DNA of 64,000 nt from an uncultured Nitrospiraceae bacterium (GTDB taxonomy: Bacteria; Nitrospirota; Nitrospiria; Nitrospirales; Nitrospiraceae). The stretch covers positions 32,001 through 96,000 of the forward strand of contig CAVPLT010000004.1 in assembly GCA_963706325.1 (NCBI GenBank), in the 5' to 3' direction. The position numbers were made by a program, and so were the translations under genes. Positions 15,983 through 34,248 of this stretch are shown piece by piece; the first letter of the stretch is position 1; each line of letters starts with the position of its first letter. The notes below the pieces were generated by a model, which was given only the letters and a program-made list of their open reading frames with translations, was not told the DNA's origin and did not search any database.

Positions 15983-16009
15983 AATTCTTCCTGCATAGAA
16001 CATACCCCC

Positions 16010-16038
16010 TTGACAATGGAACGTGTGGCAAATAAAAT
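16010..16038 (+). promoter_or_regulatory. sigma70 promoter of the tRNA-tuf operon
   Basis: TTGACA-N17-TAAAAT followed by GC-rich CGGCTGC. Confidence 0.85.
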
Positions 16039-16213
16039 CGGCTGCTTTCAAGGCCAGGTCAATCTTCATTTCATCAGCACCCCAGCCCTGTCGTTTTGCT
16101 GGGAAGCTGTGCGTGGTGGGGCTTACTTCATTCGCCGATTCAAAGAATGAAACCGCTTCGGTTAGAGACTTGCCTGGAAGAGAAAGTCTTGATTTGAATT
16201 GGGCTTGAGAGAC

Positions 16214-16299
16214 GGGCAGGTACCCAAGTGGACAAAGGGGGCAGACTGTAAATCTGCTGCCTTATGGCTTCCAAGGTTCGAATCCTTGCCTGCCCACCA
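16214..16299 (+). tRNA. tRNA-Tyr(GTA)
   Basis: Acceptor stem GGGCAGG/CCTGCCC, anticodon arm GCAGA-CTGTAAA-TCTGC, long variable arm, TTCGAAT, encoded CCA. Confidence 0.97.
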
Positions 16300-16424
16300 T
16301 ATTTGAACCGGATCGCATCTGCCTAGTCAGAATAATGATCGTGAAGGATGTGCTGTGGCGGGCGCGGACTTGTTCCAGGCAGGGTGGCCGGCAAGTCATG
16401 AAGTGTTGGTAGGTTCACCCGTGG

Positions 16425-16499
16425 GCGGGCGTAGCTCAGTGGTAGAGTTCCAGCCTTCCAAGCTGGCTGTCGTGGGTTCAAATCCCATCGCCCGCTCCA
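16425..16499 (+). tRNA. tRNA-Gly(TCC)
   Basis: GCGGGCG/CGCCCGC, CCAGC-CTTCCAA-GCTGG, encoded CCA. Confidence 0.97.
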
Positions 16500-16566
16500 A
16501 TTGAGCGCCTTTGAGCAGGAGTACATCTACAGGGATATGGCGAGCGGATACAGATTTGAATTGATG

Positions 16567-16642
16567 GCCCACGTAGCTCAGTTGGCAGAGCACGTCCTTG
16601 GTAAGGACGAGGTCACGCGTTCGATTCGCGTCGTGGGCTCCA
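16567..16642 (+). tRNA. tRNA-Thr(GGT)
   Basis: GCCCACG/CGTGGGC, CGTCC-TTGGTAA-GGACG, encoded CCA. Confidence 0.97.
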
Positions 16643-16739
16643 CCCCATAATTTGCCGGAGCGGGGTCGTTCTCCTCGTGAGGGAGAAGCATTCGATTATG
16701 GGTTTTGGGAAAACAGTGTCGTGAGAAAAGGAGTAAATC

Positions 16740-17945
16740 ATGGCGAAGGCGAAATTTGAGCGACGAAAGCCCCACGTGAACATCGGGACGATCGGGCACG
16801 TGGACCATGGCAAGACGACGTTGACGAGTGCCCTGACCAAGATCTGCTCGGACAAGGGCATGGCGAAGTTCATCAGCTATGACGAAGTGGCGAAGGCCTC
16901 GGAGAGCCAAGGGCGGCGCGATGCCAGCAAGATCATGACCATCGCGATCAGCCACGTGGAGTATGAGACGGCCAACCGGCACTATGCGCACGTCGATTGT
17001 CCGGGCCACGCGGATTATGTGAAGAACATGATCACCGGGGCCGCGCAAATGGACGGCGCGATTCTGGTGGTGAGCGCGGCCGACGGGCCCATGCCGCAGA
17101 CGCGAGAGCACATTTTGTTGGCGCGCCAAGTCGGCGTCCCGTACATCGTGGTGTTTCTGAACAAGGCCGACAAGGTGGATGACAAGGAATTGCTGGAGCT
17201 GGTGGAGCTGGAAGTGCGGGAGTTGCTGACCAAGTACGAGTTTCCGGGCGACAAGATTCCCATCGTGCAGGGCTCGGCGTTGAAGGCGATCGAGGGGGAT
17301 CAAGGGCCGTTGGGCGTACCGTCGATTCTGAAGTTATTGGAGGCCGTCGACACCTATATTCCGACGCCGACCCGCGCCATCGATAAGCCGTTTCTGATGC
17401 CGATCGAAGACGTCTTCACGATCAGCGGGCGCGGGACGGTCGTGACGGGGCGCTGCGAGAAGGGGATCGTGAAGGTGGGCGATGAAATCGAAATCGTCGG
17501 GTTGAAGCCGACGCAGACGACCATCGTGACCGGCGTGGAAATGTTCCGCAAGGTTCTCGACGAAGGGCAGGCGGGCGATAACATCGGCGTCTTGCTGCGC
17601 GGGACGAAGAAGGAAGATGTGGAGCGGGGCATGGTGCTGGCGAAGCCCAAGAGCATCACGCCGCATACGAAGTTCAAGGCCGAGATCTATGTGTTGACGA
17701 AGGAAGAGGGCGGGCGGCATACGCCGTTTTTCAACGGGTACCGGCCGCAGTTCTACTTCCGGACGACGGACGTGACGGGAATCGTGACGCTGACGCCGGG
17801 GGTGGAGATGGTCATGCCCGGAGACAATGTGACGGTGACCGGCGAGTTGATCAGCCCGATCGCCATGGATCAGGGGCTGCGCTTTGCGGTGCGCGAGGGT
17901 GGGAAAACCGTCGGCTCAGGCGTCGTCACTGAAATTCTAGCGTAG
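16740..17945 (+). CDS. tuf: Elongation factor Tu (copy 1)
   Basis: [35 protein letters not shown]. Confidence 0.99.
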
Positions 17946-17951
17946 GAGAGG

Positions 17952-18018
17952 GAGGCGTGAGGCGTTAGACGTTCTAAGTGAGGGAGTGACTGTTCCCCGC
18001 CTTCACGTCGCACGCTTC
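17952..18018 (+). repeat. Heptamer-repeat hairpin between tuf and rpmG
   Basis: GAGGCGT-GAGGCGT-TAGACGT; 17952-17965 pairs with ACGTCGCACGCTTC at 18005-18018. Confidence 0.55.
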
Positions 18019-18031
18019 GCGGGATTACGAC

Positions 18032-18181
18032 ATGCGAGACATTATTGATTTGGCCTGTACGGTCTGCAAGCAGCGGAATTATACGACCCGCAAGAACAAG
18101 AAAAATGACCCGGATCGTTTGGAGCGGAATAAGTTCTGTAAGTTTTGCCGGAAGCACATTGCCCATAAGGAAGTGAAGTAG
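18032..18181 (+). CDS. rpmG: 50S ribosomal protein L33 (zinc-ribbon form)
   Basis: Manual translation [49 protein letters not shown]. Confidence 0.97.
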
Positions 18182-18240
18182 GGTTTTTCGTGCTGGGTGG
18201 GGATTTTGACCTTGGCTCGGCAGCGCGCATGTTCCGAAGG

Positions 18241-18315
18241 AGGGGCATGGTGTCAACGGCAGCACATCGGTCTCCAAAACCGAGAGTCTAGGTTCAAATC
18301 CTAGTGCCCCTGCCA
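18241..18315 (+). tRNA. tRNA-Trp(CCA)
   Basis: AGGGGCA/TGCCCCT, TCGGT-CTCCAAA-ACCGA, encoded CCA; canonical position before secE. Confidence 0.97.
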
Positions 18316-18473
18316 AGCTCAACGCGTATGACCTGGTGCATGGTGGTGTCGTGGCATTGTTTCTGTGAACCACTCGTTCTATGCTGTTGAGATTGCCTTC
18401 GCGCGTGACGCGATATCAGGCCGTCGGTTCGGGTAGCTGAACTGTTGGAAAGTTCCACGAGAGGATTGTAACC

Positions 18474-18668
18474 GTGTTTCAGCGATTGACCGCTTCTATT
18501 CGGGAATTCATCGAAGGCGTTCACGGCGAACTGAAAAAGGTGTCGTTTCCGACGAGGACGGAAACGATCGGAGCCACCACAGTCGTTATTGTGTTCTGCA
18601 TCCTCATGTCCCTGTATCTTTCGATGATGGATTCCGTGCTGGGCTGGCTGATGCGCAAGGTTATCTAG
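18474..18668 (+). CDS. secE: Preprotein translocase subunit SecE
   Basis: ELKKVSFPTR.ET motif, one TM helix, synteny. Confidence 0.93.
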   Translation: MFQRLTASIREFIEGVHGELKKVSFPTRTETIGATTVVIVFCILMSLYLSMMDSVLGWLMRKVI

Positions 18669-18741
18669 ATGCGTCGTGCGGCTGGACAGGTCCGGCATTG
18701 TCCGGACGATATGATGCTGGATGTTCAGCTGAGAGGAGATG

Positions 18742-19281
18742 ATGAACAATAAGAACTGGTACGTCATCCATACCTATGCGGGGTTTGAAGGCCGCGTAAA
18801 AACCAGTCTCCTTGAGCGCGCAAATCAAATGGGGCTCACTGAGCGACTTGGGCAGGTCTTGGTGCCGACGGAAGATGTGATTGAAATCAAGGATGGCAAG
18901 CGACGGACTTCCAGACGCAAGTTTTTCCCGGGTTATGTCCTGATTGAGTTGGAATCGCCCTTGGCCGACGAAACCTTGCAGATGATCAAGGAAACTCCAA
19001 AGGTGACGGGGTTTGTCGGCGGCGGTGCCCAACCGACACCGCTTTCGCCTGAGGAAGTCGATTCGTTGTTGAAGCAGGTGGACGCCGGTGCGGCAGGTCC
19101 TCGCGAGCAGGTTCGGTTTATCAAGGGTGACAATGTCCGCATTGTGGACGGTCCGTTCCTGGGTTTTAACGGCGCCGTGGATGACGTGGATTCCGACCAT
19201 AGCCGGGTGAAAGTCTTCGTGAGTATTTTTGGCCGGTCCACGCCGGTGGAGCTAGGATTCTTGCAGGTCGAGCGTATTTGA
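18742..19281 (+). CDS. nusG: Transcription termination/antitermination factor NusG
   Basis: WYVIHTYAGFE, KFFPGYVL, KOW motif GPF.GF.G, SIFGRSTPVEL. Confidence 0.98.
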   Translation: MNNKNWYVIHTYAGFEGRVKTSLLERANQMGLTERLGQVLVPTEDVIEIKDGKRRTSRRKFFPGYVLIELESPLADETLQMIKETPKVTGFVGGGAQPTPLSPEEVDSLLKQVDAGAAGPREQVRFIKGDNVRIVDGPFLGFNGAVDDVDSDHSRVKVFVSIFGRSTPVELGFLQVERI

Positions 19282-19359
19282 GGTCACTGGATTGGCGTTG
19301 CTGGACAGGGACCCGCTCCCAGCCTGTGCGCCCGATCCGCAGTTCTCATGGAGTAACTC

Positions 19360-19782
19360 ATGGCTAAGGAAGTATCCGCACAAATTAAGTTGCAGATTCC
19401 GGCTGGCAAGGCCAACCCTGCGCCGCCTGTTGGCCCCTCGTTGGGGCAGCACGGTGTGAATATCATGGAGTTCTGCAAGCAGTTCAATGCGAAAACGCAG
19501 AAGGACGGGGATAGCATCATCCCGGTGATCATAACGGTCTACAAAGATCGTAGCTTTACCTTCATCATGAAGACCCCTCCAGCTTCGGACTTGCTGAAGA
19601 AAGCCGCCGGTATTATCAAGGGCTCCGGGGTGCCCCATAAGGATAAAGTCGGGAAGATCAGTCAGGCCCAAGTCCGGGAGATCGCCCAAAAGAAATTGTC
19701 CGACCTGAATGCGGCTGATCTGGAAGGCGCCATTAAGATCATCCAAGGGACAGCGCGCAGTATGGGCATCACCGTCCAGTAA
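19360..19782 (+). CDS. rplK: 50S ribosomal protein L11
   Basis: [33 protein letters not shown]. Confidence 0.99.
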
Positions 19783-19826
19783 GTCTCGGTAGAGTGAACC
19801 TCCGGCGGACGTGAAGGAGTAGCAGT

Positions 19827-20519
19827 ATGGGAAAGAAGTTGACCGCGGCTCAAGAAAAGATCGAGCCCAGGTTCTATGCGTTGAAAGAGGCGGTCGAGGC
19901 CGTCAAAGAGGCAGCGTTTGCCAAGTACGATGAATCCGTGGATCTAGCGATTCGCTTGGGGATTGATCCGAAGCGATCGGATCAAATGGTACGCGGTACG
20001 ACCGCGTTACCGCACGGAACCGGGAAGAAAGTCCGTGTGCTTGTCTTTGCGAAGGGCGAGAAGGAACAAGAGGCTCGGCAGGCCGGCGCCGATTTTGTCG
20101 GCTCCGATGACTTGATGGAAAAGATCAAGGGCGGGTGGATGGATTTTGATTGTGCGATTTCCACCCCAGATCTGATGGCCTCCGTCGGCAAGCTCGGAAA
20201 GGTATTGGGTCCCCGCGGTCTGATGCCGAATCCGAAAACCGGCACGGTGACCTTCGAAGTTGGCAAGGCTGTGAGCGAGATTCGTAAAGGCCGCGTCGAG
20301 TTCAAGGTCGAAAAAGCCGGGATCGTTCAAGTGCCGGTTGGGAAGGTCTCATTTGATGCCCAAAAATTGTACGACAATGCCCATGCGGTGTTGGAGTCTG
20401 TCGTCAAAGCGAAGCCGTCCTCCTGTAAAGGCCGCTATCTCAAGAGTGTGACGATGTCGAGCACCATGGGGCCGGGCGTGAAGCTGGATCCCGTGGCCTT
20501 GTCGAAGTTGTGGAGTTGA
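19827..20519 (+). CDS. rplA: 50S ribosomal protein L1
   Basis: [30 protein letters not shown]. Confidence 0.99.
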
Positions 20520-20550
20520 GAACGTAGAGGTTCTCAGTAAGGGGAAAGGC

Positions 20551-21486
20551 ATGAAGAAAGAAGAGAAGGCAACAGCGATCGCGGAATTGACGGAAAAATT
20601 CGGTCGCGCCCGCTTGGCTATTCTGACGGAGTGCGCCGGCATGCCCGTCAATCAGATGACCGAGTTGCGCAGGCAGTTACGTGGCGCCAAGGCCGAGTAT
20701 TGCGTGATCAAGAATACCCTAGCCGTCCGTGCGTCGGCCGGGACAAGTCTTGCCGATGCGAAGCCGCATTTTAAGGGACCAACGGGGTTGGTGATCGGCT
20801 ATGACGATCCGGTTCTCCCGGCGAAAATCTTGCGGGATTTTATTCAGGCTGAAAAACGCTCGGAAAAGATCAAAGTTACTGTCGGGGTACTGGAAGGCCG
20901 GTTGGTGCAAGCGGCGGATCTCAACGCCATTGCGCAGCTGCCGAAAAAGGAAGTGTTGATTGCGATGCTGCTGTCGGCCATGCAGGGTCCGATTCGCGGC
21001 GTGGTGTACGCGTTGAGCGGAGTATTGAGCAAGTTCGTGCGAGTCATTGCAGCCATTCAGGATAAAAAGAAAGGGGAGGGCGACATGTCAGCAGCAGAAG
21101 GAACCAAGTTGTCACAGGATGAATTGATCAAGGCAATCGAGAGCATGAGCGTATTGGAATTGGCGGATCTCGTGAAGGGACTGGAGACACGTTTTGGAGT
21201 GACCGCGGCGGCGCCGATGGCCATGATGGCACCGGCCGGCGGCGGAGCGGCTGCGGCACCGGCAGAGGAAAAGACATCGTTCGACGTCATTTTGGTCAGC
21301 GCGCCGGCTGACAAGAAAATCCAGGTCATCAAAGTCGTGCGCGAACTTACCAGCCTCGGACTTAAGGAAGCGAAGGACTTGGTTGAAGGCGCTCCGAAGC
21401 CCGTCAAGGCCGGCGTGACCAAGGAAGAATCCGATACTATGAAGAAAAAGCTTGAAGAGAGCGGGGCTAAAGTCGAAATCAAGTAA
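20551..21486 (+). CDS. rplJ: In-frame L10-L7/L12 fusion ORF (L10 = codons 1-178, no stop before L12)
   Basis: L10 motifs ([19 protein letters not shown]) run via QDKKKGEGD directly into L12. Confidence 0.93.
21085..21486 (+). CDS. rplL: 50S ribosomal protein L7/L12 from an internal in-frame start
   Basis: AAGGGGAGG SD then ATG 21085; [42 protein letters not shown]. Confidence 0.88.
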
Positions 21487-21567
21487 TCGCTCGGTGATCT
21501 GCGGTGCGAGTTGTCCGGTGGGATGGCGCGAGGCGTTCATCTCCTTATGAGCTTGGAGGGCTAACGA

Positions 21568-24500
21568 ATGTCGGAATCGACTCTTTCGGAGTTTGTCGAA
21601 CGCAAGGATTTTTCTCGGATTCGTACGAGCATCGACATTCCCGATCTCATTGAAATCCAAAAGCGGTCCTACGAGGAGTTCCTCCAGATGGAGGTCGAGC
21701 CGGATCGTCGCAAGGATCAAGGGTTGCAAGCGGCATTGGCCAGTGTCTTTCCCATCACGGACTACAACAACACCGCCGCGCTGGAGTTCTCCAATTACAC
21801 CTTGGGGACACCCAAATACGATGAGCGGGAATGCCTTGAGCAGGGAATGACCTATGCCGTCCCGCTGAAACTACGGGTGCGACTGATTGTCTTCGACAAG
21901 GAAGACAAGGGTCCTAAGAAGAAAGTCCTGGACGTGCGAGAGCAGGAAGTGTATGTCGGTGAACTTCCGCTTATGACGGAGCGTGGGACGTTTCTGATTA
22001 ACGGAACTGAGCGAGTGGTGGTCAGTCAGCTGCACCGCTCGCCAGGCGCGTCCTTTACTCACGACAAGGGGCGAACCCATGCCAGCGGGAAGGTGCTATT
22101 TTCCGCTCGGATCATTCCGTATCGCGGATCGTGGCTCGATTTCGAGTTCGATGCCCGGGACATCTTGTATGTTCGGATCGACCGCCGCCGGAAGATGCCG
22201 GCAACTATACTGTTGAAGGCGTTCGGGTATAGCACCGACGATTTGCTGCGCATGTATTACCCCGTGGAAGAGATTCGTGTTTCCAGAGGGAAGCTCTACA
22301 GGAAGCTCGATGCGGAGATCCATCATGGCCTGAAGTGTTCGACGGAAGTGATGGAGAAGGGCGGGAAAGATCCTCTCGTTCGCGAAGGCGCCAAACTGAC
22401 GAAAGTTTTGATTGCCAAGCTCAAGGCTGCAGGAATCAAGGAGATTCCTGTGACGCCGGCTGAGTTGGTCGGGCGCGCGGTGCTGACGGAACTCGTTGAT
22501 GCCGGCAAGAAGCAGTCGTTGGCGGAGAAGAATCAGCGTCTCACTGAAGAAATCCTTGAGAAGGTTTTGGAAAGCGACATTGCGGAATTCAAGGTCATTT
22601 ATCTCGATACGACGAATGCCACGCTGGTGATCCTCGACACCCTTGATATGGAGCGCACCGCGTCAAAAGAAGAGGCAATGGTCGAGATTTATCGTCGCCT
22701 GCGGCCAGGCGAGACGCCATCTGTTGAGACCGCGCGGGCGTTATTTGACAACTTATTTTTAAGTCCCAAGCGATATGATCTATCCCCGGTGGGACGGCTC
22801 AAGCTCAACAAAAAGCTGGGGCTCGATTTTGCGCTCGAACAGCGTACCTTAACGGCGCAAGATATCGTGGAAGTGGTGCGATACCTCGTGAATCTCAAGA
22901 TTGGTCGCGGTGAGATCGATGACATCGACCACTTGGGCAATCGTCGTGTGCGGTCTGTGGGCGAGCTTTTGGAAAACCAGTTCCGATTAGGTCTCGTGCG
23001 AATGGAGCGGAGCATCAAGGAGCGCATGAACCTCCTGGACATGGAGACCGTGCTGCCACACGACCTGATCAATGCTAAGCCCGTTGTTGCGGCGGTCAAA
23101 GAGTTTTTCAGCAGCAGCCAGCTCTCTCAGTTTATGGATCAAACGAATCCTCTGGCTGAAATCACCCATAAGCGCCGCCTGTCGGCCCTGGGCCCAGGCG
23201 GGTTAACGCGTGAGCGTGCCGGCTTTGAGGTGCGCGACGTGCATCCTTCGCATTACAGTCGCATTTGCCCGATTGAAACACCGGAAGGCCCCAACATCGG
23301 GTTAATCACATCCCTGGCCACCTATGCGCGCATCAATGAGTTTGGATTCATCGAGGCGCCGTACCGGAAGGTGCTCAAGGGCCGAGTGAGCGATGAGCTG
23401 GAGTATCTCTCGGCCATCGAGGGTGACAAGTACATCATTGCCCAGGCCAACTCAAAGGTTGATACATCGGGCAAGCTCGTATCAGAAACGGTGTCAGCCC
23501 GCTCCGGCGGAGATTTTATTACGGCCACGCCCGACAAAATCGAATACATGGACGTCTCCCCGAAGCAGGTGGTCAGCGTGGCGACGGCATTGGTGCCGTT
23601 TCTTGAGCACGATGACGCCAACCGTGCATTGATGGGCTCGAACATGCAGCGGCAAGCGGTGCCTTTGCTGAAGGCGGAGTCCCCGTTGGTCGGAACTGGG
23701 ATGGAAGCTGTGGTGGCGCGCGATTCCGGGTATGTCGTGCAGGCAAAGCGAGAAGGAGTGGTGGAGAGTGTCGATGCCACCAGGATCGTCGTTCGTGCCG
23801 ATTCGAAAGAGGGACGCAAGCGAAACGATTCGGGCCTTGATGTCTATGAAATGATCAAGTTTCAGCGGTCGAATCAAAATACCTGCATCACCCAGACGCC
23901 CGTGGTCCGGGTCGGGGAACCTGTGAAGAGAGGACAGGTCTTGGCGGATGGTCCCGCAATTGATCACGGAGAGCTGGCGCTCGGCAAAAATGTCCTCGTC
24001 GCATTCATGCCGTGGGGGGGATACAACTTCGAAGATGCGATTCTGTTGAGCGAAAAGTTGGTGCGTGAAGACGCGTTCACCTCCATTCACATTGAAGAAT
24101 TTGAGGTAGAAGCCCGCGATACGAAATTGGGCAAGGAAGATATTACGCGCGATATTCCGAACGTCGGTGAGGAAGCGCTTCGTGATTTGGACGAGAGCGG
24201 GATTATTCGGATCGGCGCGGAGGTGAAGCCCGGTGATATTCTCGTCGGAAAGGTCACCCCGAAAGGTGAAACCCAGCTGACACCGGAGGAGAAGTTGTTG
24301 CGCGCGATCTTCGGTGAGAAGGCAGGGGACGTCAAGGACACCTCACTGACGGTTCCTCCTGGCGTGGAAGGCATTGTCGTCGATGTAAAGATCTTTTCCC
24401 GCAAAGGGTTGGATAAGGACGAACGCTCGAAGAGCATCGAGAGCGAAGATCACATGAAGTTGCAGCGAGACCACCAGGAAGAGCTGCGAATCATTGAGGA

Positions 24501-33042: not shown

Positions 33043-34248
33043 ATGGCGAAGGCGAAATTTGAGCGACGAAAGCCCCACGTGAACATCGGGACGATCGGGC
33101 ACGTGGACCATGGCAAGACGACGTTGACGAGTGCCCTGACCAAGATCTGCTCGGACAAGGGCATGGCGAAGTTCATCAGCTATGACGAAGTGGCGAAGGC
33201 CTCGGAGAGCCAAGGGCGGCGCGATGCCAGCAAGATCATGACCATCGCGATCAGCCACGTGGAGTATGAGACGGCCAACCGGCACTATGCGCACGTCGAT
33301 TGTCCGGGCCACGCGGATTATGTGAAGAACATGATCACCGGGGCCGCGCAAATGGACGGCGCGATTCTGGTGGTGAGCGCGGCCGACGGGCCCATGCCGC
33401 AGACGCGAGAGCACATTTTGTTGGCGCGCCAAGTCGGCGTCCCGTACATCGTGGTGTTTCTGAACAAGGCCGACAAGGTGGATGACAAGGAATTGCTGGA
33501 GCTGGTGGAGCTGGAAGTGCGGGAGTTGCTGACCAAGTACGAGTTTCCGGGCGACAAGATTCCCATCGTGCAGGGCTCGGCGTTGAAGGCGATCGAGGGG
33601 GATCAAGGGCCGTTGGGCGTACCGTCGATTCTGAAGTTATTGGAGGCCGTCGACACCTATATTCCGACGCCGACCCGCGCCATCGATAAGCCGTTTCTGA
33701 TGCCGATCGAAGACGTCTTCACGATCAGCGGGCGCGGGACGGTCGTGACGGGGCGCTGCGAGAAGGGGATCGTGAAGGTGGGCGATGAAATCGAAATCGT
33801 CGGGTTGAAGCCGACGCAGACGACCATCGTGACCGGCGTGGAAATGTTCCGCAAGGTTCTCGACGAAGGGCAGGCGGGCGATAACATCGGCGTCTTGCTG
33901 CGCGGGACGAAGAAGGAAGATGTGGAGCGGGGCATGGTGCTGGCGAAGCCCAAGAGCATCACGCCGCATACGAAGTTCAAGGCCGAGATCTATGTGTTGA
34001 CGAAGGAAGAGGGCGGGCGGCATACGCCGTTTTTCAACGGGTACCGGCCGCAGTTCTACTTCCGGACGACGGACGTGACGGGAATCGTGACGCTGACGCC
34101 GGGGGTGGAGATGGTCATGCCCGGAGACAATGTGACGGTGACCGGCGAGTTGATCAGCCCGATCGCCATGGATCAGGGGCTGCGCTTTGCGGTGCGCGAG
34201 GGTGGGAAAACCGTCGGCTCAGGCGTCGTCACTGAAATTCTAGCGTAG
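33043..34248 (+). CDS. tuf: Elongation factor Tu (copy 2)
   Basis: Protein identical to copy 1. Confidence 0.99.

Follow-up and report, generated by a model that had tools for sequence, protein, structure and literature searches.

The DNA analysed here, referred to as the window, is a stretch of 64,000 nucleotides from an uncultured Nitrospiraceae bacterium (assembly GCA_963706325.1, contig CAVPLT010000004.1, positions 32,001 to 96,000 of the forward strand). The element of interest is a gene in which the coding sequences of the two proteins of the ribosomal stalk, L10 (rplJ) and L7/L12 (rplL), are joined in one reading frame. This open reading frame (ORF) lies at 20551..21486 on the plus strand, as do all the features described below; it has 311 codons, ends in TAA and encodes L10 and L7/L12, both of them complete and joined by a linker of 13 residues. 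A purine-rich stretch resembling a Shine-Dalgarno (SD) sequence, AGGGGAAAGG, precedes the rplJ start (20540..20549). The L10 module (residues 1-175; 20551..21075) closes with the helix alpha8 (residues 133-175; 20947..21075), the docking helix for dimers of the L12 N-terminal domain, which was delimited with an AlphaFold2 model and by alignment to the solved chain 1zav_A. The L12 part is composed of an N-terminal domain for dimerisation and L10 binding (residues 189-235; 21115..21255), a flexible hinge rich in Ala and Gly (about residues 216-243; 21196..21279) and a C-terminal, factor-binding domain (residues 244-311; 21280..21483).

Between the two modules, the junction (21061-21087) reads GAT AAA AAG AAA GGG GAG GGC GAC ATG. 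The codons for K-K-K-G-E-G-D (21064..21084) serve as linker and also constitute the putative ribosome-binding region of a nested rplL, given that they contain the motif GGGGAGG (21073-21079), located 5 nt upstream of an in-frame ATG. This ATG (21085..21087) is codon 179 of the ORF and the proposed internal start of free L12; the nested gene that begins with it (21085..21486, stop included) would produce a complete L7/L12 of 133 aa. A preliminary description of the locus, made from the sequence alone, had claimed an in-frame L10-L12 fusion of 311 aa without an intervening stop, and had given the junction, the position of the SD motif, the ATG at 21085 and the complete 133-aa L12; the ORF and the Pfam matches bear out the fusion, and the remaining details agree exactly with the sequence.

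The L10 module belongs to the uL10 family, as indicated by its match to the Pfam profile Ribosomal_L10 (PF00466; residues 1-97, E 6e-27, 94 bits with a cut-off of 22.8) and by its alignment to solved chains, for example 7o5b_p (E 2e-26). The second module has all three parts of a bL12 protein, that is, the N-terminal dimerisation domain (Ribosomal_L12_N, PF16320; residues 189-235, E 3e-18, 65.6 bits, cut-off 25), the flexible hinge and the C-terminal domain (Ribosomal_L12, PF00542; residues 244-311, E 2e-28, 98.7 bits, cut-off 25.9), and residues 187-311 span whole solved bL12 chains (1dd3_A, residues 3-128, E 6e-36; 1rqu_A, residues 2-120). The AlphaFold2 model of the 311-aa chain, of moderate confidence overall, was used only to set domain limits and to evaluate the disorder of the linker (mean predicted local distance difference test, pLDDT, 67; predicted template modelling score 0.44). 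It presents a confident L10 body, the helix 133-175, a linker of low confidence (175-188, pLDDT <50), short helices of the L12 N-terminal domain (189-197 and 201-215), a disordered hinge (216-246, pLDDT <50) and the C-terminal domain. In this genome, which is 96% complete, the profiles for L10, for the L12 N-terminal domain and for the L12 C-terminal domain have one match each, and all of them fall within the fused ORF. Since the sole L10 match is found there, L10 is made only as a fusion, barring cleavage or frameshifting.

The preliminary description had proposed that the missing stop be looked for across the Nitrospirota, and the comparison places it throughout the order Nitrospirales. Among the genomes sampled as relatives, 35 of 41 match the fused ORF, and the full-length matches, which come from four families of the order (f1 to f4), are all free of stops. 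In the sample of the order (251 genomes with a completeness of at least 80%) there are 241 with a match, and all of the 150 matches listed cover residues 1-311 without a stop, many of them in single-contig genomes. Ten matches of the order that were incomplete or came in two pieces were inspected individually: their pieces all end at contig ends or sit on different contigs, and in eight of the ten one piece crosses the junction stop-free. As for the ten genomes of the order without a match, a PF00542 search in five of them found no L12 match above the cut-off (one, G356, has a single sub-threshold match of 24.8 bits, and the other four have none). Two of the five, near-complete genomes of the same genus (G009 and G011, one of them a single contig), lack a match not only for L10-L12 and the L12 C-terminal domain but also for L1. 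In these genomes the locus appears to be unreadable in the copies available; they are neither counter-examples nor cases of absence. One genome of the order stands out for its size (G265, family f2): it is listed with 20 contigs that add up to 16 Mb (completeness 98%, contamination 1%), and its relatives have 2-5 Mb.

In the sample of the phylum, 174 of 201 genomes match, and the full-length stop-free matches listed come only from the families f1 and f2 of the order; the listed matches of other families are either two separate ones (L10 and L12) or read-throughs with 1-6 stops. Five matches from outside the order that had large open-frame values (G041, G103, G088, G056 and G082) were inspected as possible fusions and rejected, as all five are ordinary separate rplL genes. 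In six relatives outside the order, rplJ ends in TGA, TAG or TAA and is followed by a spacer of 38-100 nt and by the SD and ATG of rplL, whereas in the window codons 1-311 run without a stop and there is no separate rplL ORF. Proteins that are 95-96% identical to the one described here carry source names of Nitrospira, including N. defluvii, which is placed by NCBI in the Nitrospirales, Nitrospirota. As judged from this distribution, the fusion is ancient and fixed in the order Nitrospirales, and the fused state is a clean synapomorphy for it. The simplest history would be a single deletion in the ancestor of the order, which would have taken out the final few codons of L10 together with its stop and the greater part of the spacer, leaving the ribosome-binding region of rplL in frame. 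A further difference concerns the start of L12. Ahead of its first helix there is a conserved acidic pair (D/E-D/E-hydrophobic; in this gene, DEL), and the residues between the Met and this pair (21088-21114 in the window) number 9-11 in fused lineages and 4-6 in most of the separate rplL genes read from the phylum, with up to 13 in one. In this small sample, the longer N-terminal stretch of L12 in fused lineages may represent a lengthening of the tether.

An error of sequencing or assembly that removed a stop or shifted the frame would produce the same appearance in a single genome. The stop-free frame recurs in every one of the 150 listed matches of the order, and 120 proteins listed from the database, of 310-312 aa and with identities of 93-100%, share it. 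The preliminary description had proposed that the junction be confirmed in raw reads. Contigs assembled from other public sequencing runs bridge it, and no indel is found in them: one contig (X13 record 10) covers 20998-21341 with 0 differences, another (X11 record 1) covers 20850-21097 with 0 differences, and one from an RNA library (X15 record 17) covers 20850-21102 with 8 substitutions and no gaps. All four runs were examined as contigs, which show a gapless junction and not transcript ends or expression. The probability of such an error is negligible, and the fusion is genuine, not an assembly artefact.

The length of the docking helix is relevant to what the fused gene has to provide. Residues 3-174 of the L10 module align to residues 5-179 (of 180) of the Thermotoga maritima L10 chain 1zav_A, with a gapless and closely similar C-terminal helix; in the same search, the alignment with Escherichia coli L10 chains (query 4-171, chain 6-160) covers about 13 fewer residues. 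The T. maritima stalk carries six L12 copies per L10, the three-dimer form. The alignment of alpha8 to 1zav_A, without gaps up to the C-terminus, agrees with the three dimer sites suggested in the preliminary description, and the length of the helix appears to be of the three-site T. maritima type; the dimers bound in the cell are predicted from it. According to the available text of two sources, each L10 carries four or six L12 copies, bound as dimers on adjacent 10-residue sites at the L10 C-terminus (PMC1635324, PMC3299993), and, in the part available of the second, E. coli requires several L12 dimers for efficient translation (PMC3299993). A chain with a 1:1 ratio of the two proteins cannot fill several dimer sites on its helix, so free L12 must have another source.

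The junction contains a candidate for that source. An ATG at the start of L12, preceded by an SD-like purine core, is present in all 41 distinct fused ORFs of the four families, while the linker peptide varies: KKGEGD in f1 (aaaGGGGAGGgcgacATG), KKGEGE in f2 (aaaGGAGAAGGAGaaATG), PKEDS or TKEEP in f3 (AAGGAGGattccATG) and KGMGEM or KGTGEM in f4. The SD core is GGGGAGG or GGAGAAGGAG in the KKGEGD/E linkers and AAGGAGG in f3, and f4 has the weakest SD-like core. The 3' end of the 16S rRNA of this genome is ...GGATCACCTCCTTTCT, and the energy of the duplex between this tail and the internal SD is -11.6 kcal/mol. The values at four other genes are weaker than this one (rplJ -7.3, tuf -8.4, rplA -8.7 and rpoB -9.8 kcal/mol). 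Such a strong SD exceeds what chance would provide: the 2,338 ORFs of this genome with a length of 250 aa or more, a crude set that may hold a few mis-called starts, contain 16,476 in-frame ATGs in their interior, and the SD duplex energy is -11.5 kcal/mol or below in 41 of these (0.25%) and -11 or below in 60 (0.36%). Few parts of the ORF have a weaker predicted mRNA structure than the interval from -25 to +15 around the ATG (median at the 3.3rd percentile in 41 orthologues, range 0.7-49.5).

The most telling test is a scan of synonymous diversity, because all the codons of the gene share one tree. In the raw values, the five lowest of 303 nine-codon windows fall within codons 166-180; after correction for amino acid, the six lowest fall within codons 167-187, and this result is the same in f1 (23 sequences) and in f1 plus f2 (31 sequences). 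The Lys codons AAA AAG AAA are invariant in the 23 distinct f1 sequences, and Lys codons elsewhere vary (mean 0.54 bits). Constraint on silent sites at both sides of the ATG is what a translation-initiation region, and not a mere peptide linker, would predict. The preliminary description had also raised the question of whether the SD-encoding linker is conserved at the nucleotide level; it is, in the sense that the SD-like core and the ATG are kept while the peptide changes and that synonymous variation is lowest near codon 179. Thus, an SD-like element at a suitable distance and an in-frame start, both conserved in relatives, are present, as expected of a nested gene. As for transcription, a crude scan of 18000-22000 for sigma-70 promoters found no promoter-like site (2.1 are expected by chance), and terminator-like sites in the same interval are at chance level. 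This crude scan does not suggest a separate internal promoter, and none would be needed.

Taken together, these observations are best accounted for by an ancient fusion of rplJ and rplL that probably yields two products, the L10-L12 chain and free L12 from the internal start. Every part of the earlier interpretation that can be tested computationally came out in its favour and is in that sense supported; the two products and the composition of the stalk are predicted from sequence. A number of points weigh against this reading. The RNA-library contigs do not establish transcription. In f4 the SD-like core is weak, since three sequences have -4.0 kcal/mol at the ATG that was scored and the two remaining ones have -6.6 and -7.4, and the start region is not weakly structured in 4 of the 41 orthologues (percentiles 32-50). 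Among the synonymous encodings of KKKGEGD, 10.6% give an SD of -11.5 kcal/mol or lower and 72% give -8 or lower; the peptide itself favours a strong SD, so within one family SD strength is weak evidence for selection on the RNA. Its use as proof of such selection within a family was dropped for this reason, and the comparison between families and the scan of synonymous diversity were used in its place. The codon-adaptation test cannot separate the two modules (codon adaptation index 0.815 and 0.807); moreover, ribosomal and elongation-factor genes verified by Pfam show no excess codon bias in this genome (median 0.771 vs 0.787 for all long ORFs), and codon bias is therefore unusable for comparing the translation of the two halves. 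Finally, the stop status was read for the 150 matches listed in the order, with 101 further matches outside that list, and the genomes compared are kin and not independent samples.

Three other explanations accept the fusion and dispense with the internal start or with the tether. One of them considers the gene as encoding a polyprotein, in which the 311-aa chain would be cut in the linker and mature ribosomes would have ordinary, separate L10 and L12 without any tether. According to the model, the linker (residues 175-188, pLDDT <50) would be disordered, exposed and thus accessible to proteases, yet cleavage alone would supply one L12 per L10 to a helix that has the length of three sites. Cleavage would also leave the conserved ATG, the SD-like core and the synonymous sites near codon 179 unexplained, and the linker peptides vary by family (KKGEGD, PKEDS, KGMGEM) with no conserved cleavage motif visible. 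This possibility is considered unlikely, although cleavage could operate alongside internal initiation. The fusion-only alternative has nothing in its favour beyond the single ORF: no free L12 would exist, and the stalk would rely on the one L12 that is tethered or on the L12 portions of fusion chains made in surplus. A full three-site helix, close to that of T. maritima L10, would be pointless with one L12, surplus chains would leave L10 domains unanchored, and the conserved SD and ATG would again lack an explanation. The need of E. coli for several L12 dimers in efficient translation, as given in the text available of that work (PMC3299993), also speaks against it, and we regard this alternative as very improbable.

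The remaining possibility is a programmed frameshift near AAA AAG, with termination at the TGA at 21120 or, for an earlier slip, at the TAA at 21063, by which free L10 would be released and the fusion would be rare. Both stops exist in the -1 frame (TAA, 21063-21065; TGA, 21120-21122), and GAT AAA AAG resembles A AAA AAG, the slippery site of dnaX. In dnaX, an SD-like element is located upstream of the slippery site, whereas here it is downstream of the Lys codons. A zero-frame heptamer of the type X XXY YYZ is missing in 24 of 25 distinct junctions (L035 alone has one), Lys runs are missing altogether in family f3, and the position of the first out-of-frame stop with respect to the ATG varies from -25 to +254 nt in the -1 frame and from -35 to +58 nt in the +1 frame. 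Neither the conserved heptamer nor the nearby conserved stop of a -1 frameshift of the dnaX type is therefore found. The preliminary description had left room for -1 slippage at AAA AAG to the TGA at 21120; this TGA is real, but the slippage has no comparative support, and a frameshift is given hardly any weight here.

If the gene does yield two products, the following sequence of events can be proposed. The L10 stop and nearly all of the intergenic spacer would have been lost, so that the remainder of the old 5' region of rplL is now read as the linker K-K-K-G-E-G-D, whose codons would still act as a ribosome-binding site. The first product would be the 311-aa L10-L12 chain that starts at 20551; it follows from the sequence, because there is no stop between the modules and no second L10 gene. 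The second would be free L12 of 133 aa, started at 21085 and probably at a higher rate, since the stronger SD, in an open stretch of the mRNA, would drive this start and would give free L12 in several-fold excess. The L10 part would anchor the stalk, its three-site alpha8 would bind dimers of the L12 N-terminal domain, and one L12 would be attached to it permanently by a disordered linker about 13 residues long. The tethered L12 could either fill one of the six places (the fusion plus 5 free copies) or add a seventh arm (the fusion plus 6 free copies). In view of the geometry of the 1ZAV complex, a flexible tether of this length is presumably sufficient for the N-terminal domain that it carries to get to the distal site on the helix of the same chain. 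A more tentative proposal, which we consider possible but doubtful, is that the number of arms is odd: free L12 dimers would occupy all three sites and the L12 on the tether would be a seventh arm, or it would pair with a free L12 as a fourth, covalently anchored dimer. Either arrangement would be a convergent bacterial counterpart of the tail of the archaeal and eukaryotic stalk protein P0. If an extra arm exists, the tether would ensure that no ribosome of a slow-growing cell is without an arm, and it could also act as a nucleus for the assembly of the stalk.

It is well known that the L7/L12 stalk recruits translational GTPases, and the reason for having several loosely bound L12 copies is still debated. 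The whole order, to which the principal nitrite oxidisers in soils and in wastewater plants belong, would have to build each ribosome with one L12 covalently tied to L10. Should both products be made, these bacteria would offer a natural system in which to address the role of a tethered arm in factor recruitment, in stalk assembly and in the control of stoichiometry. The consequences would also reach annotation, since pipelines would be overlooking an essential free L12 in hundreds of genomes, and marker-gene pipelines that expect separate L10 and L12 proteins should treat the clade specially.

The protein database has 4,423 matches with E up to 1e-10, and the 120 listed proteins mentioned above have the same domain string. 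One cluster (P0047) is named 'Fused 50S ribosomal proteins L10 and L7/L12 (modular protein) [Nitrospira defluvii]'; it has 311 aa, is 95% identical, keeps the domain order and represents the same gene in a close relative, and the entry gives the product name only. Most other copies are named plainly 'L7/L12' or 'L10'. The earlier expectation that annotation pipelines would call only one product holds for these copies, named for a single protein, and fails for the N. defluvii entry, which is named as fused. Hence the fusion, already flagged in databases, is not a new discovery, and it is the nested two-product design that seems to be unstudied. A full-text literature search, which included term searches of PMC13001810 and PMC3578206, found no discussion of the fusion, the internal start or the stalk in the text accessible to it, with subscription journals poorly covered. 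In its available text, the paper on the genome of N. gracilis lists rplJ and rplL merely as phylogeny markers (PMC3578206).

Fusions of L10 and L12 are also found in other phyla, in about 20 cluster representatives of 297-332 aa with 34-46% identity, whose match begins within residues 1-18 and continues in one stretch through 310-311. Some of these clusters have several members (one has 16) and are named from metagenome-assembled genomes of Armatimonadota and Chloroflexota/Dehalococcoidia. At the protein level, at least 9 of 11 aligned fusions from other phyla keep a Met after residues rich in G and E at the start of L12. These sporadic cases have independent origins and different linkers and are mostly singletons or small clusters, whereas the fusion of the Nitrospirales is fixed in the whole order. 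Another kind of L12 architecture appeared in the same database: in five proteins of 593-1056 aa (P0125, P0138, P0153, P0162 and P0172), the L12 C-terminal domain matches at 6-8 separate places, forming tandem arrays of the factor-binding domain.

With respect to the canonical rplJ-rplL operon, the locus keeps the two protein families, their order and their position between rplK-rplA and rpoB. The order of genes in the window is tuf, a tRNA, an ORF of the size of secE, one of the size of nusG, rplK, rplA, the fused ORF, rpoB and rpoC, where rplK and rplA were verified by Pfam and the other neighbours are named from position and size alone. The ribosome-binding site of L12 is stronger than that of L10, as expected if L12 is made in excess. 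The difference lies in the single ORF, with neither stop nor spacer, by which L10 always comes with a covalent L12; where relatives have a spacer of 38-100 nt, only the four codons of GEGD follow the L10 tail. Another difference is that the leader that binds L10(L12)n in the canonical operon is absent: a search of 16000-22500 against Rfam, with E up to 1, found no L10_leader or other cis-regulatory family, only tRNAs and one sub-threshold chance match, and an undescribed regulator elsewhere is possible. The gap between rplA and rplJ is 31 nt (20520-20550). The gene tuf, which encodes EF-Tu, is present in two copies (16740-17945 and 33043-34248, both on the plus strand), one before the secE-nusG-rplKAJL block and the other after fusA. 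The two copies are identical in 1206 of 1206 nt, which suggests ongoing gene conversion.

The canonical stalk itself, L10(L12)4 or L10(L12)6, is non-covalent and has a solved example in T. maritima (1ZAV/1ZAW/1ZAX). It resembles the stalk predicted here in the helix alpha8, which aligns gaplessly to 1zav_A, and in the usual N-terminal domain, hinge and C-terminal domain of L12. As for how the gene would be expressed, the closest analogues would be nested genes whose internal start lies in the frame of the long product, such as infB (IF2 alpha and beta), clpB and cheA of E. coli. These genes share with the fused gene the single ORF, the internal SD with an in-frame start, and a long and a short product with a common C-terminal part. 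In the present case, by contrast, the short product would be a complete and ancient protein, evolved separately, that must outnumber the long one several-fold, and both predicted products would assemble together.

In terms of function, the closest analogue of the fused L10-L12 would be P0. The base of the archaeal and eukaryotic stalk, P0 (uL10), has a C-terminal, factor-binding tail of its own that is like those of P1/P2; to our knowledge, bL12 and P1/P2 are not homologous. The stalk that P0 forms has the composition P0(P1-P2)2, according to the text available of a report on it (PMC3794596). In both systems the anchor would have one covalent element that recruits factors beside the copies that are bound non-covalently. 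The covalent element of P0 is a short tail, whereas that of the Nitrospirales, acquired by gene fusion, would comprise all of bL12, from the dimerisation domain through the hinge to the globular domain.

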